Below are positions 13,201 through 40,010 of a DNA stretch of 64,000 nucleotides, piece after piece. Position 1 is the stretch's first letter, and the number at the start of each line of letters is the position of its first letter. This DNA is from an uncultured virus (IMG/VR IMGVR_UViG_3300035698_010745). Taxonomy: Duplodnaviria; Heunggongvirae; Uroviricota; Caudoviricetes. The stretch lies in the IMG/VR virus record IMGVR_UViG_3300035698_010745. One strand, written 5' to 3'. The notes under the pieces were generated by a model that searched no databases, was not told the origin of the DNA, and saw only the letters and a list, made by a program, of their open reading frames with translations. Made by a program: the position numbers and the translations under genes.

Positions 13201-14212
13201 ACTTCACGTACTTGTCCCTCTTGATACCACCGAGCGTCAACACCGCATCACGCATGGCGTCGTCATTGCACCTCCACCGTGGCCATCGTAAGCTGCAATA
13301 CTTCGTCGTAGGACTGAGCCGCAAGACACTTCGTGCTGTACTCCTTGGCCAAATCATTGTGCCCGGCCCGTTTCAGGGCCTTGCTCGTCTGGCCAATAAC
13401 GCTGAACACATTGCCATCCTGGCCTGTCAATTGCACAACCACATCTGTTTTTGGCATCGTTATTCTTCTCCCGGCCCTCACATACACCCATACATTGCCC
13501 CACAAGACCGGGATTCTGAATATTTTCCCGATTTCATTGGGCCAGCCCTCCCCACCCCGCTTGCTTCAGCGCTGACGGGCATCCGGGCGCAGCCGCCCTC
13601 GGTTGATGCTTGATTCCGTGCCAGATGCGACGACCCTCGGCCATGGACACGAACATGCCATCCTTACACCCCTGCCGGGCGAAATCGTCACAGCCACCCG
13701 TTGCGGCCACCAACTTCTCAAATCTATCACGGGCTTTCATGCGTATTCCCATTTCAGACGCTTGCATTTTCTAACCTGGGCCTGAACCCAAATCTGGCCT
13801 GCCGGGTCAAGGATATCAAAGCCGATACCCTCATCATCATTACCCGTCACATTACACTCATCCTGCCGCAACTGCCGCGCCCGTGTTTTCGCCGCATCAC
13901 CAGAGGCACACTGAAAACGAAATTCCTCACACCCCATGTTCTTGAGAACGAGCGTCCAGGTCCAGGTCTTGGCTTTCTGAGAAGGAGTCCGGGTAATCAT
14001 TCAGTGCCCCTACCCGCATCCACCCAGCGTTTGCGAGAGGTCACGGCCACGGGCATCAGCACCTCAGTCGTAGTCTGTACCGTGCGGAGAAACTTCAACC
14101 ACTCCCCTGCATTCTTCGGTGTGATAGGGTGATGCTTCAATAGCACATTAACCATCCGGTCTACCCGTGCACCCTCATCGTACCCTACCAGCTTATCCTC
14201 TGACTCAGCCAT
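10209..14212 (-). other. block of ~14 tightly packed small hypothetical phage genes
   Basis: Abutting or overlapping minus-strand ORFs (e.g. 10209-10553, 10871-11284, 11510-11746, 11743-12312, 12780-13100, 13263-13505, 13737-14000, 13997-14212), many with ATGA-type stop/start overlaps. Confidence 0.65.
13493..13519 (-). promoter_or_regulatory. class-1 phage promoter motif TCAGAAT-N14-GCAATG
   Basis: Exact match. Confidence 0.75.
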
Positions 14213-14741: not shown

Positions 14742-14825
14742 TGGTGCCGGGAGCGAGATTCGAACTCGCACGCCCGAAGGCCCCGAATTTTAAGTCCAGG
14801 TTGTCTGCCATTCCATCATCCCGGC
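14742..14825 (-). tRNA. tRNA-Leu(TAA)
   Basis: Cloverleaf with CTGGA-CT TAA AA-TTCGG, long variable arm, encoded CCA. Confidence 0.92.
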
Positions 14826-14847
14826 ATATTTTTAACTGAATACGACT

Positions 14848-14938
14848 TGGCGGAAGGAATGGGGGTCGAACCCATACGCCCTTTCGGGCAGCCAGATTTC
14901 AAATCTAGTGCCGCCGCCATCTATCGGCTGGTCCTTCC
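14848..14938 (-). tRNA. tRNA-Ser(TGA), atypical D-arm junction
   Basis: GGAAGGA/TCCTTCC acceptor, CTAGA-TT TGA AA-TCTGG, long variable arm, G73, CCA. Confidence 0.85.
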
Positions 14939-14946
14939 AAATATAC

Positions 14947-15033
14947 GACGAGTGCCTTAAACCACTCAGCCAACCGGCCCGAAGGCCAGTGTGGGATTCG
15001 GACCCACGAGGACACCGAAGTGCCCTACTCGTC
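14947..15033 (-). ncRNA. circularly permuted tRNA-Ser-like domain with UUCG-capped acceptor stem
   Basis: Order is GACGAG, variable arm, T arm, ACTGGCC-TTCG-GGCCGGT, D arm, CTCGTC. Confidence 0.75.
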
Positions 15034-15035
15034 TC

Positions 15036-15125
15036 TGGCGGAGAAGACAGGATTTGAACCTGCGGATGTTTTATCACCTCTCGCTTTCCAGGCGAGTGCC
15101 TTAAACCTGACTCAGCCACCTCTCC
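15036..15125 (-). tRNA. tRNA-Ser(GGA)
   Basis: CTCGC-CT GGA AA-GCGAG, long variable arm, G73, CCA. Confidence 0.92.
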
Positions 15126-15132
15126 AATTCGC

Positions 15133-15155
15133 TGGCGGAAGATATGGGACTTGAA
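15133..15155 (-). repeat. degenerate duplicate of the tRNA-Ser(CGA) 3' end
   Basis: TTCAAGTCCCATATCTTCCGCCA versus TTCAAATCCCTCCTCTTCCGCCA of the tRNA at 15933. Confidence 0.6.
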
Positions 15156-15163
15156 AATCATAA

Positions 15164-15189
15164 TTCTTTGATATTCAGTCTAAGGGTAG
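15164..15189 (+). promoter_or_regulatory. putative class-2 phage promoter TTCTTTGATA-N12-GTAG
   Basis: Immediately upstream of the AGGAGG RBS of the plus-strand endonuclease gene. Confidence 0.5.
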
Positions 15190-15198
15190 GAGGATGAT

Positions 15199-15876
15199 AT
15201 GCACCCGCTCTACACAGAAACCGAATTCAAAGCTGCCAAATCACGAAACAAACTACCACTTAAATGTTTTACTTGTGAGCAACCATTTTTGCTTAGCAAA
15301 AACAGAATACAATGCTCTCTTTCTCCCCACTCCAACGACAACGGAATGTTTTGCAGTAAGAAATGTACCGGCCTATATTTTATGCCAAATGTCGTATGCC
15401 TCCAGTGCTCAACCACCTTCCGAAAGAAGAGAACCCAAATCTCCAAATCTAAATCTGGCAATCATTTCTGTTCTCGTTCATGTGCTGCCATCTACAACAA
15501 TGCCCACAAGAAGCACGGGACCCGACGGTCAAAACTCGAAGCATGGCTTGAGGAACAACTCACCGCCATTTATCCCGACCTTGAATTTCATTTCAACCGC
15601 AAAGATGAGATTCTGTCAGAACTCGACATCTATATCCCTTCGCTCCGGTTGGCCTTCGAACTCAATGGCATTTATCACTACGAACCCATCTACGGTCAGG
15701 ACAAGCTCGATGCCATTCAATCTAACGACCATCGCAAGTTTGCTGCTTGCCATGAAGCGGGGATTAGCCTCTGCTCCATTGACACATCTCATCAAAAATA
15801 CTTCAAAGAGCAATCATCACGAAAATTCCTGAAGATTATCCAAAACATCATCGACTCTCGCTTGTCAGACTCTTAG
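15199..15876 (+). CDS. putative homing endonuclease (Zn-finger repeats plus a PD-(D/E)XK/Vsr-like domain)
   Basis: C..C...FCS..C repeats; ELDIYIPSLRLAFELNGIYHY motif; AT-richer than flanks; antisense within the tRNA array. Confidence 0.75.
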   Translation: MHPLYTETEFKAAKSRNKLPLKCFTCEQPFLLSKNRIQCSLSPHSNDNGMFCSKKCTGLYFMPNVVCLQCSTTFRKKRTQISKSKSGNHFCSRSCAAIYNNAHKKHGTRRSKLEAWLEEQLTAIYPDLEFHFNRKDEILSELDIYIPSLRLAFELNGIYHYEPIYGQDKLDAIQSNDHRKFAACHEAGISLCSIDTSHQKYFKEQSSRKFLKIIQNIIDSRLSDS

Positions 15877-15933
15877 CCAGTCTTTCGACTGTTTCTAGCC
15901 GGAACCACGTAGAGGTGGCCTGATACTCCGGCT
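15865..15933 (-). ncRNA. HDV-like (theta-type) self-cleaving ribozyme at the tRNA-Ser(CGA) 3' end
   Basis: P1 AGCCGGA/TCCGGCT, P2 TCAGGC/GTCTGA, P3 CAC-CTCTAC-GTG, P1.1 CT/AG, P4 CAGTC-GAAA-GACTG, J4/2 GCTAAGA. Confidence 0.8.
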
Positions 15934-16021
15934 GGCGGAAGAGGAGGGATTTGAACCCCCGTGCGCTTTCACGCGCCTCCGATTTCGAATCGGGCCGATT
16001 GCCAGGCTCTCGCACTCTTCC
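15933..16021 (-). tRNA. tRNA-Ser(CGA)
   Basis: CCGA-TT CGA AA-TCGG, long variable arm, G73, CCA. Confidence 0.88.
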
Positions 16022-16090
16022 ATAAGGAACACAGGGACTTTGGAACGCAGTCTTGCCCATATTCCTCGGCTCGCAAGCTAGGTACTCCTT

Positions 16091-16179
16091 TGGCGGAAGG
16101 GACAGGATTTGAACCTGCGTACGCTTTCACGCGCCTGGGATTAGCAATCCCGCCGATTACCCGGCTCTCGCACCCTTCC
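16091..16179 (-). tRNA. tRNA-Ser(GCT)
   Basis: GGGA-TT GCT AA-TCCC, long variable arm, G73, CCA. Confidence 0.88.
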
Positions 16180-16183
16180 AAGT

Positions 16184-16342
16184 TCGTCTCCACACCAATA
16201 GTCACAACGGGCTTTATCTGGTCCGGCGTGTCTGCCATTTCACCACCTCGGCCATAGGCCAAGGACAGGTTTCGAAACCTGCACGTCCTTTCGGACACCG
16301 GTTTTGGTAGAAGTATCCCACTGTTGAAGCGTGTTTCGACGA
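16184..16342 (-). ncRNA. yrlA: YrlA-like Y RNA with a permuted Leu-type tRNA domain
   Basis: Terminal TCGTC/GACGA stem with GTCGAA motif; internal order variable arm, T arm, looped acceptor stem CCTTGGCC-TAT-GGCCGAGG, D arm; scaffold shared with 18924-19056. Confidence 0.72.
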
Positions 16343-16427
16343 TGGCTGCTGGGACAGGTCTCGAACCTGCAAGCCCGAAGGCGGCACATTAACAGTGTGC
16401 TACGGCTACCAATTTCGTCACCCAGCA
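16343..16427 (-). tRNA. tRNA with Asn (GTT) anticodon and class-II long variable arm
   Basis: TGCTGGG/CCCAGCA acceptor, GCACA-CT GTT AA-TGTGC, GCC-TTCG-GGC variable hairpin, G73, CCA. Confidence 0.8.
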
Positions 16428-16431
16428 ATAA

Positions 16432-16606
16432 ATCATGGCAACCGATTCGGGCTTTTACCGCCCGGCGAGGCTTGACTCGGTAAACATCAAGCAAGGTTTC
16501 CATCCGGCTTTGGAAGCTACAAATGCCTTGTGGGCACCGGGCAAGGGCGAACCATTACCTGAACTCCACACAAGGTTCATCCGTCAGGGCTCCACCCCTC
16601 GGACAT
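16432..16606 (-). ncRNA. candidate structured ncRNA (multiple hairpins, possible loop-loop pseudoknots)
   Basis: Fills the spacer between the two Asn tRNAs; hairpins GCTTGAT/GTCAAGC, CGGGC/GCCCG and TTCCA/TGGAA; loop TTTACCG complementary to CGGTAAA. Confidence 0.45.
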
Positions 16607-16682
<76 letters not shown>

Positions 16683-16687
16683 ATCAA

Positions 16688-16761
16688 TGGAGGCGGGTAT
16701 CAGATTCGAACTGATGTGGATTGCTTTGCAGGCAATTACCTGGCCACTCGGACAACCCGCC
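16688..16761 (-). tRNA. tRNA-Cys(GCA)
   Basis: ATTGC-CT GCA AA-GCAAT, U73, CCA. Confidence 0.92.
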
Positions 16762-16781
16762 GTCTATTCAACTTTTCAAAT

Positions 16782-16864
16782 TGGTGGGCCGGGGAGGAAT
16801 TCGCACCTCCACAGAATAACGGGTGTTTTACAGACACTTGGGCTCACTCTTGCCCAGCCGACCC
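16782..16864 (-). tRNA. tRNA-Tyr(GTA), atypical T loop
   Basis: GTGT-CT GTA AA-ACAC; T loop TGCGAAT instead of TTCGAAT; CCA. Confidence 0.8.
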
Positions 16865-17005
16865 CTTTTCGTTCATATAACCATCTTCGCTCATAGCGTC
16901 CTCCTTGCGGCATGTCCGGCATGTCCGCTTTGCTCTGTGACGTTTCCACCACTTGTGCCAGCTCGTGCTGGCCTTCTGTTTCAACCTGCCTTTTCTGAAC
17001 CTCAT

Positions 17006-17094
17006 TGGTGCCGACGAGAAGACTCGAACTTCCACGGGATTTAACTCCCACTAGGCCCTCAACCTAGCGTGTCTACCAGTTCCACCACATCGGC
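17006..17094 (-). tRNA. tRNA-Leu(GAG)
   Basis: CTAGG-TT GAG GG-CCTAG, long variable arm, A73, CCA. Confidence 0.92.
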
Positions 17095-17100
17095 ATAATC

Positions 17101-17300
17101 AACGATTGAGCTGCGGGACACCACCATGTCCCACTATTTGGTGCTCTTTACAAAGACCAACCCGAAGGTCAGCGCGGCCAATCCACAGAAGGGCTATGCC
17201 CCGAACCCGTTACTTGCGACATGACTCGGTTTCCCGTTTACCATGCCACTCCCTCGGGGCCTGCCGGTCCCTGGTTTCGCGGTGGTGCCGCTCAATCGTC
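17101..17300 (-). ncRNA. candidate 200-nt multibranched structured ncRNA
   Basis: 11-bp terminal stem GACGATTGAGC/GCTCAATCGTT; nested stems GGCACCACC/GGTGGTGTC, GCCCCGA/TCGGGGC and GTGGCATG/CATGTCGC; GAAA, TTCG and GTAA tetraloops. Confidence 0.6.
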
Positions 17301-17321
17301 AAATCTCTTTCGTTCCTGCCT

Positions 17322-17410
17322 TGGTGCTGCGAGAGAGATTCGAACTCTCATGGGACTTTCGTCCTCTGGTTTTTGAGACCAGCGCCTCCGGCCAATTGGG
17401 CTACCGCAGC
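17322..17410 (-). tRNA. tRNA-Leu(CAA)
   Basis: CTGGT-CT CAA AA-ACCAG, long variable arm, A73, CCA. Confidence 0.9.
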
Positions 17411-18097
17411 CTTTCTCCATCTGGCTATAGTCGGGGGACTAACACCATGCTTCCTCGCCGAACCACGAACTCCAAGCTCTTTAACGTCATCTAGTATGAA
17501 ATCATCTGGAATCTTTCTCCTCTTTCTCCCAATGGACCCACAACATTTTATACACCTACCCGTCGACCTTTTTTCCCTCAGAGGCTTCCCACAACCTTCA
17601 CAAAAATAACTACCACCACGAAAAGCCTTTCTATTTCTTCCCGCAAACGTATCTTGTTGACTGTTACAGTTCGGACACAACATCCTCAAGTTTTCCACCC
17701 GATGGTCATTATTTACACCGTTAACGTGGTCAAGAACCATCACCAAGGTCTTTCCTCTCCACTGGGGTTCTTGCCCACACTCAAAACACCTATTCTCAAC
17801 TAGCCCCTCTTTCATAAGTCGCTTTTTGAGTGCAGATGTCCCCCGGTACTTACTATCTTTGACAAGTATTTCGCACAGAGGCTTCTTCTTTACCCATGTA
17901 CATCGTTTTCCTGAAAGATGCCCTTGCCCAGTCCAGTGCGTTGTGAGAAGTCCCAATCTCGCCACCGCCCAATGCACTGTCTTGTAGTTCGCACCAGTTG
18001 GACTCATCCCTAATTGCCTCAAGACGCCAGCAATTGAATGATTACCCACAACCGCAACGGTCATCCCATCGTCGCTCCAAGTTCTCTTGCTCGACAT
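17348..18097 (-). CDS. HNH homing endonuclease
   Basis: C..CG...W.G..LVMVLDHVNGVNNDHRVENLRMLCPNCNS motif; C-terminal HTH-like segment; reading frame runs into tRNA-Leu(CAA). Confidence 0.88.
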   Translation of the reverse strand: MSSKRTWSDDGMTVAVVGNHSIAGVLRQLGMSPTGANYKTVHWAVARLGLLTTHWTGQGHLSGKRCTWVKKKPLCEILVKDSKYRGTSALKKRLMKEGLVENRCFECGQEPQWRGKTLVMVLDHVNGVNNDHRVENLRMLCPNCNSQQDTFAGRNRKAFRGGSYFCEGCGKPLREKRSTGRCIKCCGSIGRKRRKIPDDFILDDVKELGVRGSARKHGVSPPTIARWRKAAVAQLAGGAGLKNQRTKVP

Positions 18098-18117
18098 GGT
18101 TTCTCCTTTTGTCGAGC

Positions 18118-18146
18118 ATTATGGCAGACTTGTACACCCATGTCAA
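18118..18146 (-). promoter_or_regulatory. sigma70-like promoter of the HNH gene
   Basis: TTGACA-N17-CATAAT upstream of AGGAG RBS. Confidence 0.65.
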
Positions 18147-18550
18147 CCATGTCTGCCAGTTCCATCACATCGGCAAAATCAATTCTCTATCGGAGTAGGG
18201 GGATTGTCATTCACACGTGGAACCACAACCCATATGTCCGGCTCACCCACAAACGTACTCGTCCAAAGCTGAACCAGTTTCGTATTCACAGGTGTAGCCC
18301 ACCACCCTATCCTATCAGTCGGTACGTATCCATTCCCCTTCGGAACAGAGCCAACCGCACGAACCTTGTCACTCATTTCCACCATTCCTTGTTCTCGGGC
18401 TTCCTGCCGCACTCCGCATGGATGGCCCTGGTCATCTTACATCCCTTGTACCGGGCGTACCAGGTCGCCGGGATATCCTCGCGTTTCAGGACAACGTCCT
18501 TACCACACGCACAACACTTCATTGTCTTTTCCGCATTCATCACACTCCTT

Positions 18551-18577
18551 CATTGCATACAAAGCCCAGCATTCTGA
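18551..18577 (-). promoter_or_regulatory. class-1 phage promoter motif inside the tRNA array
   Basis: Exact TCAGAAT-N14-GCAATG, followed by two small ORFs (~18373-18540 and 18179-18376). Confidence 0.75.
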
Positions 18578-18584
18578 CATCAAT

Positions 18585-18605
18585 TGGTGGTCGAGGCGAG
18601 ATTCG
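18585..18605 (-). repeat. duplicate of the tRNA-Leu(TAG) 3' end, carrying the CCA
   Basis: 18-bp exact direct repeat (18588-18605 = 18749-18766) plus CCA. Confidence 0.8.
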
Positions 18606-18685
18606 TGTCTCACCAGAAATACTTCAAGCCTAAAACATCGTGGAAGTTCCTGGACATCATTACCGGTATCATCTCAAACCGTTTA

Positions 18686-18748
18686 TCAGACTCTTAGCCG
18701 ATTATCGTTACCAGCCCGAACCACGTGGAGGTGGTCTGAACTCGGGCT
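18686..18748 (-). ncRNA. HDV-like (theta-type) self-cleaving ribozyme at the tRNA-Leu(TAG) 3' end
   Basis: P1 AGCCCGA/TCGGGCT, P2 TCAGAC/GTCTGA, P3 CAC-CTCCAC-GTG, P1.1 CC/GG, J4/2 GCTAAGA; P1 starts right after discriminator A73. Confidence 0.82.
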
Positions 18749-18829
18749 TGGTCGAGGCGAGATTCGAACTCGCACGCCCGAAGGCACCAGGTCCTAAACC
18801 TGACGTGGCTGCCGTTACACCACTCGACC
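18749..18829 (-). tRNA. tRNA-Leu(TAG), no encoded CCA
   Basis: TCAGG-TT TAG GA-CCTGG, long variable arm, A73 followed directly by the ribozyme. Confidence 0.9.
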
Positions 18830-18831
18830 AT

Positions 18832-18918
18832 TGGTGCTATCGGTGAGAGTCGAACTCACACGCCCTTGCGAGCACGGGCTTCTGAGGCCCGCGTGTCTAC
18901 CAATTTCACCACGATAGC
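18832..18918 (-). tRNA. tRNA-Leu(CAG)
   Basis: CGGGC-CT CAG AA-GCCCG, long variable arm, CCA. Confidence 0.92.
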
Positions 18919-18923
18919 ATAAT

Positions 18924-19056
18924 ATCGTCTCGCACCAATAGCCGCTGAGCGGTATGCCCAACCAACGCGGGCGTATTTCCCAGCTTTTTGTGGATGGCGG
19001 GAAATACTGGAATTGAACCAGTGAAGTATCGCTCTGCTGAAGCGTGCTTCGACGAT
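18924..19056 (-). ncRNA. yrlA: YrlA-like Y RNA with CCA inside the acceptor loop
   Basis: ATCGTC/GACGAT terminal stem with GTCGAAG; T arm ACTGG-TTCAATT-CCAGT; acceptor ATTTCCC-GCCATCCACAAAAAGCT-GGGAAAT; D arm GCCC/GGGC. Confidence 0.75.
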
Positions 19057-19132
19057 TGGTGGTGAGGGAGGAAATCGAATCCCCGACACCCTGGTCTTCG
19101 GCCAAGTGCTCTACCTACTGAGCTACCTCACC
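19057..19132 (-). tRNA. tRNA-Phe(GAA), atypical (C33, G37)
   Basis: CTTGG-CC GAA GA-CCAGG, A73, CCA. Confidence 0.82.
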
Positions 19133-19166
19133 ATAATGGGATGGCCCTGTGGTCTGGGCCATCCCC

Positions 19167-19190
19167 GTCGTATTCAGTTGTCAATGAACT
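19167..19190 (-). promoter_or_regulatory. rrn boxA-like sequence, also one arm of a long-range inverted repeat
   Basis: AGTTCATTGACAACTGAATACGAC resembles rRNA-operon boxA spacers; its last 13 nt are complementary to 14834-14846. Confidence 0.45.
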
Positions 19191-19193
19191 ATA

Positions 19194-19269
19194 TGGTGGC
19201 AACTACTGGAATTGAACCAGTGACGCGTAGATTTTCAGTCTACCGCTCTACCAACTGAGCTAAGCCGCC
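19194..19269 (-). tRNA. tRNA-Phe(GAA)
   Basis: Canonical 76 nt, GTAGA-CT GAA AA-TCTAC, CCA. Confidence 0.93.
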
Positions 19270-19416
19270 TTTTTCTCTTCACTCACTATCACACATCCCG
19301 AATGTTTCGCTCTTATCATCCTCCTCATGGACTCCGGGGCAATCGGCATCACCATCATTTCCGCGAGCTTCTTCCTTCCCTCTGGTGTGTCTAATATGTC
19401 CTTCATTCCATAAACC

Positions 19417-19452
19417 AAAAAACCCCTCACCGGCTTTCGCCGAGGAGGGGCT
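19417..19452 (-). terminator. attenuator terminator of the tRNA-operon leader
   Basis: AGCCCCTC-CTCGGC-GAAA-GCCGGT-GAGGGG followed by TTTTTT; its 5' strand can alternatively pair with GGAGGGGT in the leader ORF. Confidence 0.8.
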
Positions 19453-19474
19453 TCGTGTGTTCTGTTCGTTTAGG

Positions 19475-19552
19475 TCAGAACGCACCCCTCCGGCTGCGGC
19501 TATTAAGATAGCCACACAGCTTAAAGGACGAACTTGACAAACGTAATTTCAT
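19475..19552 (-). CDS. attenuator leader peptide MKLRLSSSSFKLCGYLNSRSRRGAF
   Basis: GGAG RBS 8 nt upstream of ATG; 25 codons, 24 distinct; last codons overlap the antiterminator strand. Confidence 0.72.
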   Translation of the reverse strand: MKLRLSSSSFKLCGYLNSRSRRGAF

Positions 19553-19639
19553 TTCAATCACTCCAAAGCCGCTAAAGTTCATTGGGCGTCTTGACAATAA
19601 TGGCCTTTGTACCCAGGGGACTCTCCCCATCGCAACAAC

Positions 19640-19669
19640 ACTATACACCTGGACCAGAAGTCCGTGCAA
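19640..19669 (-). promoter_or_regulatory. sigma70-like promoter of the tRNA/ncRNA operon
   Basis: TTGCAC-N18-TATAGT with upstream A-tracts (UP-element-like). Confidence 0.65.
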
Positions 19670-19677
19670 CCTTTTTT

Positions 19678-22175
19678 TCAACTTTTTTTCAGTGGCCCAA
19701 TGATGGCCTCAATCTCATCCGAAATCTCATTCATCCGGCGTATCCGAATGTCCCGGTTCTCATGGTCTTTGCCGTCCATAAGGGCCTGGAGGTCTCCATT
19801 CTGTTCACAAGATTCCGTAACCCTCATTAGTACGGCATCAACGGCTGGCCGCTTGTCCCCCTTGCGGCCCTCCAGAACCAGGGCCGACATTCTTGCCCCA
19901 GCTTGATGATACGACCACTCCCACAACTGTGCATACTCATCGGAACCAATACCCCGGTACGATGAAATTTCTCCCGCCTCATCCCAGTTCCACATCGTGA
20001 AGTAGTAACTCGGGTACTTGGGATTCCCCTGATAGTGCTTATTGAACTCTACCGTGGCCCACTCTTCATGGAAACCCGTACTCTGTATCCGCCTTGCAAC
20101 TTGCTTACGCACCGCTGGCCACATCGGAGAGTCGGGTGCCAGAACCAATGGTTGTCCCTTTAGGTGGTGCTCGGACATGCTTACCAGATTGGCGAACCCC
20201 TTGTCATGGGTAAGCGCGAACTCTCCCGTCGACATGTCGAAAACAACCTTCGGGTGACCATCAATCTCCCCCAGAAGATTGTACAACCGGAAAGATACCT
20301 TGAACGGGTTCAACGATGTAATCTCAATATTCATATTGTCCTAGCGTATTGCGTACTTCTCCGGGTTGTCGTGTCTCCGGCAATGATGATACCGAATGCC
20401 GTTACGGCGTGGGGTTCCAAAGTCCAATGGCTCTGTGATGCCCAACTCACTCCGCACGTAGTCCATCTCATCCGGCGTCAATGCTTCGTCGATGTTGAAA
20501 TCCGAGGTACACTCATCTATCCCCAATGCTTGCCTCCACGCCTGCCCCAAGCCCCACCTGAACTGACTCCAGCAACTCAGCGGCCCCCACGTTCCGGGCC
20601 ACTTCCTGGCAATTGCCAAGGCGTTCTCTATAAGGGCTGGACGCCCAATCCGCGCTACCGCTGCGTCGAATGACGCCAAGCCCCTAAGACGCCCCTTAAT
20701 GACGTCCTGTCGTGTTACACTTGGTCTTGCCCATCTCGTTGCCATAATTTTCCTCTCTACTCAAATTCCTGCACTTCCTCGTGCCCTGCATCCCGGTGCT
20801 GCTGAATCGTCCGGCGCACCCTGCGAGTTTCGAGTTCAAGAAACCCTAAAACGTTCGTACTGGTCTGCGTATTCCCATAATCGTGCCACCACGCCTTTAC
20901 ATCGTCCGACTGGACCAGGGCCTCCACGGCATCCACCCGCTTCTCCCAATCCTCTAGCCGTTCCCCCTGCTCTCCATAGATGTTGCAGGCTTTGTCAATC
21001 TGTCCTATCAACTTCCACTTCAAGGCTTCGGCCTCGGCGGTCAACGTCACGAGCCGAACCATGTCTTCAGATTGCTGTATGGCTTTTAATCCCATCCTTG
21101 ATTTCCTTTGCGTATCCCGCTTTCACACTGTCGGGGACGCCCTCTGCCCACTCCCCGTCAACGAGATGTCCAGCCGCGATGGCCTTCCTCGTCACACGCT
21201 GAGCAACACGGTCCACCTTTCGGCTATCTCCCCGCTCATCCGCAACTATAATTCTGGCCCACATGCCGGATGTAGTCTTATCCAGTTTGATACTCATGCC
21301 CTTACATTGCACCGCCTGCCTGGGATTCTGAAAGAAAGTGCCCGGTCCATCCAGAAGATAAGCCGGGCACCTACTCTTACGCCAGTCTGAGATGGCCGAA
21401 CAACCTCCTTCCGGCATCCCGCGTCATGGGGTAGAAGGCGATTGCCGTCCAACCGAAGTCCGGCGGGAAATCGTCATCTATGAAGTACGCGCTTGTCCCG
21501 GCCTGGAGTTCCAACTCGTGCATCTGCTCCTCAGTTGCCTGAAGAGTGATGATGGTACGGTGATTCTTCCGCCAGTCCTGGATTTCGGGGTCCTAACCGA
21601 ATTCCCCCATGAGTTCGGCAAGAGCATGACACGCCTGCGGTATCCGCTGGCCCTTGGTGAGTTCCTTTCGACATAGGATGTAGAGTGCCTTATCCATTAA
21701 GTAGGCCCTCCAATTCCTCGGCCAAGTCGCCCAGGTACATGTTGAGGTTGCCACGAGCCCAAGCCGTGTATCCGGTACCACCCGCATGCGGGGGCCGGTT
21801 ACGAAGCCGGTTGTGGAGGATGTGGGTGCCAGTGATGGCATCCTTGTCTGCCCAAGTACCCTGGCCCTCCTTGAAACCGGCAGCGAAGTCCGCCGTCAGT
21901 TCCTTGGTGGTGTGGTACTTGTGGCCCCGAGCATCGGCGTATCCGCAAAGGATGCCTTTGAGGTAAGCACACGCCTTACGATGGGCGATTTGTGCTGGTG
22001 TGAACGTCTTTTCGAGTATGGCTGTGGTCATTGTATTCTCCTTTGTTAGACCGTTAATGCCAATCAGTATGATACCAATCAGTACAACAGCCCTCACGGA
22101 GGGCCACGCGCCATCTATGTAAATCCGAAAATCTAACGTTTCTTCATCGTCTGCTCCAAAAAAAAGTTCTTTCAA
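19678..22175 (-). other. block of small hypothetical phage genes
   Basis: Minus-strand ORFs 19678-20334, 20341-20745, 20757-21095, 21067-~21297 and 21690-~22031. Confidence 0.6.
21305..21331 (-). promoter_or_regulatory. class-1 phage promoter motif TCAGAAT-N14-GCAATG
   Basis: Exact match; ATG only 7 nt downstream (leaderless-like). Confidence 0.75.
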
Positions 22176-23752: not shown

Positions 23753-23795
23753 TGGAGGGTCATACGGGGGGTCGAACCCGTCTGGACGGATTTTA
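23753..23795 (-). pseudogene. orphan tRNA 3' half
   Basis: ACGGG-TTCGAC...CCCGT-ATGACCC-T-CCA; no matching 5' half seen. Confidence 0.55.
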
Positions 23796-24401
23796 GTTTA
23801 CATATGACACTGTGAACTTCCGTTTTCCTTTTCCTTTGTTCTTGCCACAAAATGTTGGAAGCTGTCCGTCACAGTTTCGACACACGAACCTCACATTATC
23901 AGGCTTAGTCCTGGAAGCATCTCCGTCTATGTGGTCATGGACAAGGGGCACGGATTTCCCCATCCACTCGGATGTTTCACAAATAGAACATTTCAATCCC
24001 TGAGTTTTTTCAAGCCACTTGCGAACATGTTTAGATGTCCCCTGATACTTTCCTCTATAAGTTCCATTTTCGGTTCCTTTAATCCATGCATCCACCCAGT
24101 CTCTATGGTTCTTGTCTTTTTGACACTTCGTATTGCAATACTTCCTTTTATTTCCGGTCAGCTTCGAACCACACCCTAAACAAAACCCAGGGCATTCACC
24201 ATGCCGACGAACCCCTCTGTTATTAAAAGATGCCGCACAAGAATGGTTGCAGAATCTCAGTCTCTTTTTCTCATAAGGCAACTCTAATCCGCATTGTTCA
24301 CATAACTTTGGGTTATTTTCATATTCAGACCTAATCTTTTTCCATTTCGCCTTTGTTGCCTCAGCCCCCTTTAAACTGCCTTCATGCATAAGCCTATTCA
24401 T
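23793..24401 (-). CDS. HNH homing endonuclease with Zn-finger repeats
   Basis: C..C...FCNHSC, YCNTKC and CSICETSEWMGKSVPLVHDHIDG...NVRFVCRNC motifs. Confidence 0.85.
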   Translation of the reverse strand: MNRLMHEGSLKGAEATKAKWKKIRSEYENNPKLCEQCGLELPYEKKRLRFCNHSCAASFNNRGVRRHGECPGFCLGCGSKLTGNKRKYCNTKCQKDKNHRDWVDAWIKGTENGTYRGKYQGTSKHVRKWLEKTQGLKCSICETSEWMGKSVPLVHDHIDGDASRTKPDNVRFVCRNCDGQLPTFCGKNKGKGKRKFTVSYVN

Positions 24402-24463: not shown

Positions 24464-24539
24464 TGGTGCCCACAGCGAGAATTGAACTCGCAACATCCGA
24501 ATTTAGAGTTCGGCACTCTACCAATTGAGCTATGCGGGC
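24464..24539 (-). tRNA. amber suppressor tRNA (anticodon CTA)
   Basis: Canonical 76-nt cloverleaf, GCCCGCA/TGTGGGC acceptor, CCGAA-CT CTA AA-TTCGG, A73, CCA. Confidence 0.88.
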
Positions 24540-39014: not shown

Positions 39015-40010
39015 CTAACGCGGAATCTCGAACAGGAACTCTTTCAACACAGATTCGTTGTACTGCCTGTTGCTAGAGACATCAGCCTTGTACCGACGTT
39101 GCGGCCTTGTGTGGACGGACATCCTGGGAAATGCCTGAACAACATCATCCAATGACATCAACCCATCACTACTATAACTGACATACACCCTCCTGGCAGT
39201 CGTCAGTTCCACAATCGACTGGAGGAAATGGAGACATCTCTTCGGGCTACAGAACACGCTGGAACACTCATCCTTCCACGGGCGAAGTCCTGTCTTTCCA
39301 GCAGGAATTGGGTTATCATTGCGGACGAAGGTTTCATAGAGATGGTAATTTGGGCCATACTGTCTATGGTTGTACGGAGGGTCAATGTACAAGATGTCTT
39401 CCCTCCACGCAGCTCGAAACTTTGGGTCTCCCAGTAAGGATAATATATCTCTGTTGAATACCGAGACTTCCCCCTGCTCTACTTGCCTTGGCCGCAAGCA
39501 AAACTTTTCGAGGGCTCGTTTTTTGAATTGCTTTAGAAATGCCGCTTGGACTCCCGTTGTATTGTGCAATCGACCTATCTCTTCTATTCCACAATACAAC
39601 AGATAGTTCCGAACCTTCCTATCGGTTATCTTGTCAATTTCTAATCTCAACCGGTCTATCATCGCTGCATTTTCTGCCGTAAAATATAGACGTGGCGGTT
39701 CAGAAGTGTCACAAAAATGAAGGACGAAATAGCCAGTCGTGCCGTCTAGCTTGTTTATCCTTTCGATGGCCACATTACCCTCTGCAATCTGGTTCTGTGT
39801 CAATCCGATACTGCCGTCAGACACTGCGGAAGGGAAAAGCATTATGTCATTAGAAACAACCCGGAAGCCAGTCGACGCGGCTCTCCGGCTAATAACACCC
39901 GACCCACTACATGCGTCAAGAAACACCGGCTTCTCCCCCTTGGATTCGGGGGAGGGAAAAATGTCAAACAGCCAGTCAACCAATTTCAATTTTGAGCCAA
40001 TGAAGTCCAT
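39015..40010 (-). CDS. DNA adenine methyltransferase (D12 class, M.NlaIII-like)
   Basis: FIGSKLKL, DACSGSG, LYIDPPYNHRQYG.NYH and VSYSSDG motifs. Confidence 0.85.
   Translation of the reverse strand: MDFIGSKLKLVDWLFDIFPSPESKGEKPVFLDACSGSGVISRRAASTGFRVVSNDIMLFPSAVSDGSIGLTQNQIAEGNVAIERINKLDGTTGYFVLHFCDTSEPPRLYFTAENAAMIDRLRLEIDKITDRKVRNYLLYCGIEEIGRLHNTTGVQAAFLKQFKKRALEKFCLRPRQVEQGEVSVFNRDILSLLGDPKFRAAWREDILYIDPPYNHRQYGPNYHLYETFVRNDNPIPAGKTGLRPWKDECSSVFCSPKRCLHFLQSIVELTTARRVYVSYSSDGLMSLDDVVQAFPRMSVHTRPQRRYKADVSSNRQYNESVLKEFLFEIPR

Follow-up and report, generated by a model that had tools for sequence, protein, structure and literature searches.

We have found a leader in an uncultured virus of the Caudoviricetes (IMG/VR record IMGVR_UViG_3300035698_010745; the 64,000 nucleotides (nt) analysed here are called the window) that stands ahead of an array of transfer RNA (tRNA) genes and is probably a ribosome-mediated attenuator of the trp type, gating the array by sensing the supply of the isoacceptors encoded there. 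The leader has the sequence features of such an attenuator, namely a leader open reading frame (ORF) with its ribosome-binding site, regulatory codons, an intrinsic terminator, and an antiterminator sharing a strand with that terminator; the product to which its regulatory codons correspond is a set of tRNAs, not an amino acid. What is new in comparison with attenuators of the trp/his type is what is controlled, i.e., a tRNA array, and how the codons are sampled. The role of phage tRNAs is debated, and passages in several papers propose that they serve in codon compensation, take the place of host tRNAs that have been degraded, or allow the phage to escape immunity that cleaves tRNAs (PMC10264068, PMC11555353, PMC13056530, PMC13462974); in the literature that we found, the regulation of phage tRNA genes is essentially unaddressed.

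The small ORF (sORF) of the leader and its GGAG ribosome-binding site are present on the minus strand where a preliminary description of the window had put them, and 24 of the 25 sense codons are indeed distinct, AGC being the one used twice. Codons 3–17 (TTA CGT TTG TCA AGT TCG TCC TTT AAG CTG TGT GGC TAT CTT AAT), hereafter the sampling zone, include 12 codons out of 15 that are cognate to the downstream array, and these cover 12 of the 13 array anticodons once each; over the 24 codons following ATG, 15 are cognate to the array. The earlier claim that the leader codons match the downstream tRNAs, with Leu-UAG alone lacking its own codon (CTA), was thus borne out. Under standard wobble, the 13 anticodons read 20 codons. 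When each stop-free stretch of 15 codons was scored by the number of distinct array anticodons engaged, the sampling zone was the single top one with a score of 12 among 84,729 stretches in the six frames of the window, and the best unrelated stretch, at 39040 on the plus strand, scored 11. Furthermore, a score of 12 appeared in 0 out of 4,000,000 random draws in each of three codon models (uniform, six-frame usage, and the usage of long phage genes); draws scoring 11 had a frequency of 7.5e-7 to 6e-6.

A homologous module was found in a relative. A metagenome scan with the family of the 218-amino-acid protein encoded upstream of the leader (13 proteins) returned seven loci, and L002, L006, and L008 alone among them carry the module. 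L002 equals the window over 511 bases, and the leaders of L006 and L008 are identical to each other. L008/L006 represent a different phage, because their family protein is 67–69% identical to that of the window and their matched tRNAs are 62–89% identical. The family gene in L008/L006 is 3.2 kb from the array, which is preceded instead by an unrelated ORF of 76 amino acids. Directly after this ORF, L008 has an A-rich tract, TTGAAC, 18 nt, TATAGT, GGAG, the sORF, the antiterminator, and the terminator; given that the promoter block and the module accompany the array behind a different gene, the module belongs to the array and not to the upstream gene. In L008, the 5' untranslated region (UTR) is only ~16 nt, and the terminator is 12 nt ahead of the first tRNA gene (tRNA-Phe). 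A methyltransferase gene comes after the L008 array, which is therefore complete within the locus, and its 16 distinct anticodons are the 13 of the window plus Gly-GCC, Val-UAC, and Val-CAC.

The preliminary description had advised searching related arrays for sORF-plus-terminator units with codons tracking the array, and the outcome was positive in this one independent relative. Codons 6–19 of L008 (TTA GTG TCA GTA TCC TTT TTG TCG AGT TGC TAT CTT AAT GGT) correspond consecutively to 14 distinct anticodons of the 16 (15 if a late CTG is counted); the best unrelated stretch in the locus scored 10, and 0 out of 4,000,000 random draws reached 14. For 11 of the 12 sampling codons of the window, the identical codon is present in L008, and TGT is replaced by TGC, which is read by the same tRNA. 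The order of the codons differs, as TTG, TCG, and AGT have moved. The zone codons seen only in L008 (GTG, GTA, and GGT) are the codons of the tRNAs seen only in the L008 array (Val-CAC, Val-UAC, and Gly-GCC, respectively), so that the Val codons were gained together with two tRNA-Val genes, in agreement with the covariation that had been suggested as a check. For tRNAs with a wobble G, both leaders mostly use the U-ending codon that is read by wobble (TTT, TAT, AAT, CTT, and AGT). The peptides, MKLRLSSSSFKLCGYLNSRSRRGAF in the window and MKMMKLVSVSFLSSCYLNGSDHGRGLL in L008, in contrast, align poorly and have S-F and C..YLN but little else in common. Judged from these sequences, selection appears to act on the codon content, i.e., on the tRNAs called, and not on the peptide.

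Given these data, a chance sORF beside an ordinary terminator of the upstream operon is hardly conceivable as an explanation. The 25-codon frame is in fact part of a 68-codon ORF with a TTG start (19681–19475), which overlaps the stop of the upstream gene, and one unrelated stretch of the window does score 11 of 13; nonetheless, no random draw attained the observed scores, the module in L008 keeps its conserved promoter block even though another gene lies upstream, and the helices described below are kept through compensatory changes.

Other searches define where this leader is found. No leader-like stretch exists in L001, L003–L005, or L007, where the best score was 10. Against GenBank phages, the leader had no DNA match, and the arrays matched at single tRNA genes only. 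IMG/VR gave no match to three DNA patterns (a 27-mer of the sORF, the promoter block, and a shared 24-mer of tRNA-Phe) and nothing in a search with the upstream 218-amino-acid protein, and a protein alignment in IMG/VR gave one distant phage, L001 (46% identity), the complete 194.6-kb record of which has no tRNA. A degenerate core of the sORF did hit 36 loci in IMG/VR, but none of the 36 has any tRNA, and these hits were hence rejected as chance matches. Two scans of GTDB genomes found no leader.

Both leaders can form the 1:2, 2:3, and 3:4 pairings of an attenuator in computed folds. The last six codons of the sORF, together with its stop codon, make up region 2, and the antiterminator of the window pairs GGAGGGGUG/GUUCUG (19491–19476) with CAGAAC...GCCCCUCC (19464–19444). 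The free energy of this 2:3 hairpin is −26.4 kcal/mol in the window and −28.3 kcal/mol in L008. The inner helix, GUUCUG:CAGAAC in the window, is GCUCUG:CAGAGC in L008 with a U-A pair changed to C-G, and the outer helix, GGAGGGG:CCCCUCC in the window, is GGAAGGGG:CCCCUUCC in L008 with one A-U pair added; MAFFT did not keep regions 3 and 4 of the leaders in register, and the compensatory changes were therefore read from separate folds. The predicted terminators have a GAAA loop in both phages, and the hairpin with the following T6 amounts to −25.9 kcal/mol in the window and −29.1 kcal/mol in L008. The window terminator escaped a simple terminator scan because of the bulge in its hairpin. An antiterminator made from the last sORF codons and excluding the terminator at 19417–19452 had been put forward in the preliminary description, and the folds agree with both elements. 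The hairpin of regions 1 and 2, which lies within the sORF, is a candidate pause or anti-antiterminator element according to the folding model. The whole leader is, moreover, more stably folded than shuffled sequence (z −3.17). Searching the whole window with Rfam gave no family except tRNA at the gathering score, and thus no match to the amino-acid leaders (Trp, His, Leu, and Thr) or the T-box; at E-values up to 10, the interval 19250–19750 gave nothing meaningful and again no amino-acid leader or T-box match.

An alternative use of the same segment is as a functional micropeptide or, in its terminated form of ~215 nt, as a small RNA, with the terminator merely ending a small gene. The sORF, the ribosome-binding site, and the terminator are conserved in the relative, the leader folds better than its shuffled versions, and the peptide itself is conserved among analogous units of Caulobacter and Brevundimonas phages (MSKTYRQFVRQIQ...; see below); also, by-products of an attenuator with functions in trans are described, in the part of the literature available, for rnTrpL/peTrpL. 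We nevertheless regard this alternative as very improbable, since the window and L008 have kept the codon set but little of the peptide, the need to pair in the antiterminator fixes the last six codons, the unit always abuts the tRNA array, and no Rfam family is matched. A role of the terminated leader RNA in trans is, in any case, compatible with attenuation.

To locate the predicted switch, the nascent RNA was folded up to the terminator loop, with a ribosome masking the RNA from −15 to +12 of its A site at each codon in turn. In the window, the probability of the 2:3 pairing, P(2:3), was at least 0.95 with the ribosome at codons 1–17, 0.17 at codon 18, and 0 from codon 19. In L008, P(2:3) was 0.02–0.04 at codons 1–2, 0.89–1.0 at codons 3–17, 0.6 at codon 18, and at most 0.1 from codon 19 to the stop. 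Other footprints shifted the boundary by 1–2 codons only. The sampling codons accordingly occupy the zone in which a stalled ribosome permits the antiterminator, followed by three spacer codons and then region 2. The attenuation geometry recognised earlier is hence recovered in the masked folds, in which the modelled switch falls precisely where the sampling codons stop. Until the polymerase has made region 3, region 2 is sequestered by region 1 in L008 and by region 1 together with a UTR segment in the window, and freeing it costs 23.6 and 11.5 kcal/mol, respectively. L008 thus shows, in the folding model, the complete four-region logic of trp, including termination in the case of no translation. 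Its region 1:2 hairpin is the stronger of the two; that of the window is weaker, and 2:3 still prevails there at equilibrium.

The same model raises the question of whether the attenuator might report the general status of translation, such as starvation, ribosome shortage, or uncoupling after host shut-off, with the identity of the codons being secondary. Any slowing of the ribosome gives read-through in the model, and the window leader is predicted to be "on" when no ribosome is present. This possibility is, however, improbable in our view. Under it, there would be no reason for 12 anticodons of 13 in one array and 14 of 16 in the other to have one test codon apiece, for these codons to persist through a reshuffled order and a different peptide, or for Val codons to turn up alongside Val tRNAs.

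If the leader acts as an attenuator sensing isoacceptor supply, the following series of events can be proposed. Transcription would begin at the conserved promoter-like site, and a ribosome would load at GGAG/ATG to translate the leader of ~25 codons, the central 12–14 of which name nearly every array tRNA once. With fast decoding, the ribosome would cover region 2 while the polymerase makes region 3, and the 3:4 terminator would then form and stop transcription before the first tRNA gene. When any one of the sampled tRNAs is scarce, or many are mildly scarce and their delays add up, the ribosome would lag in the sampling zone; the 2:3 pairing (−26 to −28 kcal/mol) would then form, no terminator would appear, and the array would be transcribed. 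The new phage tRNAs would speed the decoding of the leader and turn the array off again, which would be a product feedback as in amino-acid operons. The circuit should hence be self-limiting, because the product tRNAs decode the test codons. It is noted that the translation of the sORF, the termination, the response to tRNA supply, and the feedback loop are what we infer from the leader's organisation. Candidate causes of the scarcity would be a host pool serving these codons poorly, degradation of host tRNAs during infection, and tRNA-cleaving immunity.

The last of these causes might even be the purpose of the device, which would then fire when PrrC, AriB of PARIS, PtuAB of a retron, or Schlafen-type enzymes deplete host tRNAs, so that phage copies replace the cleaved ones. 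We consider such a counter-defence purpose rather unlikely, but it has attractive aspects. Sampling by isoacceptor and not by amino acid fits the loss of particular tRNAs better than amino-acid starvation, and long variable arms are typical of the Leu, Ser, and Tyr tRNAs, of which the array has Tyr and the full range of Leu and Ser isoacceptors. Indeed, passages in the literature describe tRNA cleavage as a recurring antiviral strategy and phage tRNAs as a means to evade it (PMC10264068, PMC11555353, PMC13056530, PMC13462974). In the passages that we cite, on the other hand, human SLFN11 is the only enzyme said to prefer long-arm (type II) tRNAs, and the bacterial enzymes covered there are either broad in their cleavage or directed at other tRNAs (PMC13056530, PMC13462974). 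Neither a host, a nuclease, nor a cleavage-resistant tRNA feature was identified in the window or the loci, and a simple mismatch of codon supply with product feedback accounts for the same anatomy.

Several observations do weigh against an attenuator that senses isoacceptor supply. The sigma70-like promoter of the preliminary description stands in part: the site is present, and the block GTTGNAC-N18-TATAGT occurs once without mismatch in the window and is exact in L002, L006, and L008 only, among the loci compared, but the −35 element is poor, with 3 of 6 positions matching TTGACA, and the site was not listed in a consensus scan. As for the codons, GGC and GGT of the window leader have no tRNA-Gly, even in a permissive Rfam search of the array, and CGT and AAG lie inside the sampling zone with no Arg or Lys tRNA; the earlier caveat on leader codons for Arg, Lys, Gly, and Ala, for which the window encodes no tRNA, thus remains. 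CTA, the codon for Leu-UAG, is missing from both leaders, and the sole CTG of L008 is its codon 26, in the non-permissive zone. One codon per tRNA, as opposed to the runs of classical leaders, may make a single slow codon a weak signal. Just two independent leader lineages were found, and the covariation therefore rests on three codons. A spacer of 147 nt with a possible small ORF separates the window terminator from the first tRNA gene (19269), and a strong promoter-like site at 18146–18118 could express the distal tRNAs independently, much as had been cautioned for an internal promoter. With the full terminator present, the equilibrium fold was always the terminator (P 0.79–0.97) whatever was masked, which means that any switch must be kinetic and co-transcriptional. 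In the absence of a ribosome, finally, P(2:3) was 0.96 in the window, i.e., predicted "on," versus 0.05 in L008.

Several known systems resemble the leader examined here. Leader-peptide transcription attenuators are familiar from enterobacteria, namely trpL, hisL, leuL, thrL, pheL, and the pheST leader. The phage leader shares with them a short ORF that contains regulatory codons, four RNA regions that can pair as 2:3 or 3:4 and, less firmly in the window, as 1:2, to the exclusion of one another, and a terminator of the intrinsic type just ahead of the genes under control. Translation of the leader and read-through caused by a stalled ribosome are further common points, both of which are predictions in our case. 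It differs from them in that phage tRNA genes, and not genes for biosynthesis or synthetases, are controlled and that one codon each for 12–14 isoacceptors replaces the run for a single amino acid. Multivalent attenuators also exist; the ilvGMEDA leader has Leu, Val, and Ile codons and the thr leader has Thr and Ile codons, so that two to three amino acids are sensed through repeated codons. Like them, the phage leader integrates the supply of several aminoacyl-tRNAs in one leader, but up to 14 anticodon species of 6–8 amino acids are sampled once each, and synonymous isoacceptors are separated (four Leu and four Ser codon families). The T-box riboswitch, which controls synthetase and amino-acid genes, binds one uncharged tRNA via a specifier codon with no need of translation; like the proposed phage attenuator, it acts in cis, responds to the state of tRNA, and toggles between a terminator and an antiterminator, whereas the phage leader is predicted to rely on translation and no T-box was matched by Rfam in the window. 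Leader-peptide attenuators have been analysed by Elf and Ehrenberg, as seen from part of their paper (PMC1183508). Full-text searches of the literature turned up no account of tRNA genes, whether of phages or otherwise, being controlled by leader-peptide attenuation.

Analogous units were seen in cultured phages. A six-frame survey of whole arrays in six unrelated cultured phages gave no outlier and was low in power, because 9–27 anticodons were pooled across the blocks of each locus; a block-wise version of the survey gave only the unit of Caulobacter phage BL57. In BL57, TTGACA-17-TAGGGT, an sORF (MSKTYRQFVRQIQVVRNIRAGRSR...), and a strong terminator stand ahead of a tRNA block (tRNA-Phe, Val, Ile, Ile, Val, Gln, and Gln), and this unit was found by blastn in 45 GenBank phage records of Caulobacter and Brevundimonas. 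Among five cultured Dolichocephalovirinae, namely phiCbK, BL57, CcrSC, and the Brevundimonas phages Bajun and Bambus, the sORFs of such sORF-plus-terminator units cover 7/7, 7/7, 7/7, 7/8, and 5/5 of the anticodons assigned to the block by ARAGORN, with binomial p values of 4e-5 to 4e-4 for codons 2–20. A second unit is formed by gp083 of phiCbK (MFALSHNSLSTKAASPASLSL...) and an annotated terminator before a Pro/Lys/Leu/Ser block, in which 10 of 10 anticodons are covered. Like the window leader, these units have a promoter-proximal sORF rich in codons of the downstream block and a terminator directly before the tRNAs; unlike it, they are non-homologous, conserve the peptide among themselves, and repeat the codons for an amino acid. 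Another difference is that the antiterminator arm of BL57 is in the middle of the sORF, and masking predicts the terminator for codons 18–26 only. The terminator is already annotated in some phiCbK-type records. In the available portion of the phiCbK genome paper (PMC3556154), "attenuat" occurs 0 times, and Rfam is stated to have found no RNA element beyond tRNAs. These analogous units show that the logic is not a one-off and provide a cultured test system. Between the BL57 terminator and tRNA-Phe (L009 ~13215–13320), there is also a sequence resembling a tRNA, with GUA (Tyr) in its anticodon loop and CCA at its 3' side, which is unannotated and was not called by ARAGORN; the BL57 leader has one TAT codon.

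Table 1. Positions of the leader elements, the neighbouring features, and the related units (positions refer to the window unless a locus is named)
Feature	Position	Strand	Remarks
Promoter-like site	19640..19669	-	TTGCAC (19669-19664), 18-nt spacer, TATAGT (19645-19640); A-rich tract upstream
5' UTR	19553..19633	-	~81 nt, assuming a transcription start ~7 nt past the -10 element
UTR segment	about 19592-19581	-	GUCAAGACGCCC; complementary to region 2
Ribosome-binding site	19564-19561	-	GGAG; 8 nt ahead of ATG
Leader sORF	19475..19552	-	MKLRLSSSSFKLCGYLNSRSRRGAF; 25 sense codons plus TGA
Sampling zone	19502..19546	-	Codons 3-17 (TTA...AAT); 12 cognate codons plus CGT, AAG, and GGC
Region 1:2 hairpin	19487..19527	-	Within the sORF; CCUUU..GCUG..GGCUAU-CUUA-AUAGCC..CAGC..GGAGG
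Region 2	19476..19500	-	Final sORF codons and stop; 5' arm of the antiterminator
Region 3	19439..19464	-	CAGAAC...GCCCCUCCUCGGC; 3' arm of the antiterminator and 5' arm of the terminator
Predicted intrinsic terminator	19417..19451	-	Bulged G+C-rich hairpin with GAAA loop (19451-19423) and T6 (19422-19417)
Gene for the 218-amino-acid protein	20334-19678	-	Upstream of the leader; stop directly before the module
tRNA array	14742..19269	-	15 genes, 13 distinct anticodons (ARAGORN)
Leader sORF of L008	L008 3623-3706		MKMMKLVSVSFLSSCYLNGSDHGRGLL; 27 sense codons; GGAG 5 nt ahead of ATG
Analogous units of cultured phages	L009 13004-13180; L015 53-282 and 1854-2015; L016 2507-2670; L017 2492-2655; L018 2480-2645		

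The window is part of a large uncultured phage with genes nearly all on the minus strand, including those for a tail-like protein of 1745 amino acids, an NAD-dependent ligase, CobT/AAA proteins, methyltransferases, and HNH endonucleases. Near-identical DNA is present in salt-lake metagenome runs, eight DNA runs of salt lakes being listed with no RNA run alongside them, and in contigs of four sequencing runs compared at 80% likeness, the letters of the leader were all the same as in the window. On the minus strand in the 5' to 3' direction, the order is the stop of the 218-amino-acid gene, the A-rich tract, the promoter-like site, the leader with its sORF, the hairpin, T6, and the tRNAs. The family of the upstream protein has no Pfam or PHROG match; most members are ~140–150 amino acids long, and a C-terminal extension of ~70 residues is seen in the copy of the window, its near-identical cluster, and one other member.

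The array begins with Phe(GAA) twice, followed by Leu(CAG), Leu(UAG), Leu(CAA), Leu(GAG), Tyr, Cys, and Asn twice, and ends with Ser(GCU), Ser(CGA), Ser(GGA), Ser(UGA), and Leu(UAA), with HNH endonuclease genes interspersed. Thirteen array tRNAs were confirmed by Rfam in a default search and a 14th in a narrower one, and the "tRNA mimics" mentioned in the preliminary description were seen neither by ARAGORN nor by Rfam. The spacer between the terminator and the first tRNA gene (19270–19416, minus strand) has a protein-like ORF (MKDILDTPEGRKKLAEMM...) with its ATG at ~19406 and its TAG inside the tRNA, and it is absent in L008, where the distance is 12 nt. The first tRNA-Phe of the window is 67% and the second is 89% identical to that of L008, and the spacer with the first tRNA-Phe may be an insertion. 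At 16343–16427 (minus strand), furthermore, ARAGORN but not the Rfam tRNA model recognised an 85-nt tRNA with an Asn anticodon (GUU) and a long variable arm, beside an ordinary 76-nt tRNA-Asn at 16607–16682.

Genes of HNH homing endonucleases are in or near the array at 17348–18097 (minus strand), 15199–15876 (plus strand), and 23793–24401 (minus strand), the former two having PHROG HNH matches. The strong promoter-like site noted above, TTGACA-17-CATAAT, is ahead of the first HNH gene. Remodelling of the array driven by these genes may explain the leader codons with no tRNA (GGC and GGT). Two matches to the hepatitis delta virus (HDV)-like ribozyme family RF02682 were seen on the minus strand at 15865–15932 (39.2 bits, E 7.7e-5) and 18685–18747 (30.3 bits, E 0.0089), both under the gathering score of 44; they are directly 3' of tRNA-Ser(CGA) and tRNA-Leu(UAG), respectively, and each is just ahead of an HNH insertion. 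These matches resemble the "theta" ribozymes that are described, in part of the published account, as adjoining phage tRNAs (PMC10879173), and the HDV-like elements may trim tRNA 3' ends at the interruptions of the array.

Elsewhere in the window, an amber-suppressor tRNA (anticodon CUA) is encoded at 24464–24539 (minus strand) and is conserved in the phage group, being found also in L004, L005, L006, and L008. TAG ends 8 of the 58 long ORFs on the minus strand, and four of the eight continue in frame into the next ORF (6507–6061 into the 1745-amino-acid tail-like gene, 20745–20341 into the 218-amino-acid gene, 36924–35659, and 32335–31634). Such continuations could be programmed read-through or chance.

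Taken more broadly, we tentatively suggest, with some reservation, that phages carry an undescribed class of multiplex sensors of tRNA supply, in which the test codons of a leader list the tRNAs of the gated array by isoacceptor. A spare tRNA set would then stay off unless the decoding of those codons fails in the infected cell, for example, after cleavage by immunity; the window leader, with a single codon for each anticodon and a prevalence of U-ending codons read by wobble, would be the sharpest form of this class, and the class might reach cultured model phages such as phiCbK. If this proves true, the phage would gauge the decoding of exactly the codons of its own array and make tRNAs on demand, and the purpose of phage tRNAs would become testable by asking which tRNA shortage opens the attenuator. 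Classical attenuation would, moreover, be extended from the supply of amino acids to that of isoacceptors, and the leader would serve as a compact, natural blueprint for sensing several tRNA inputs at once.

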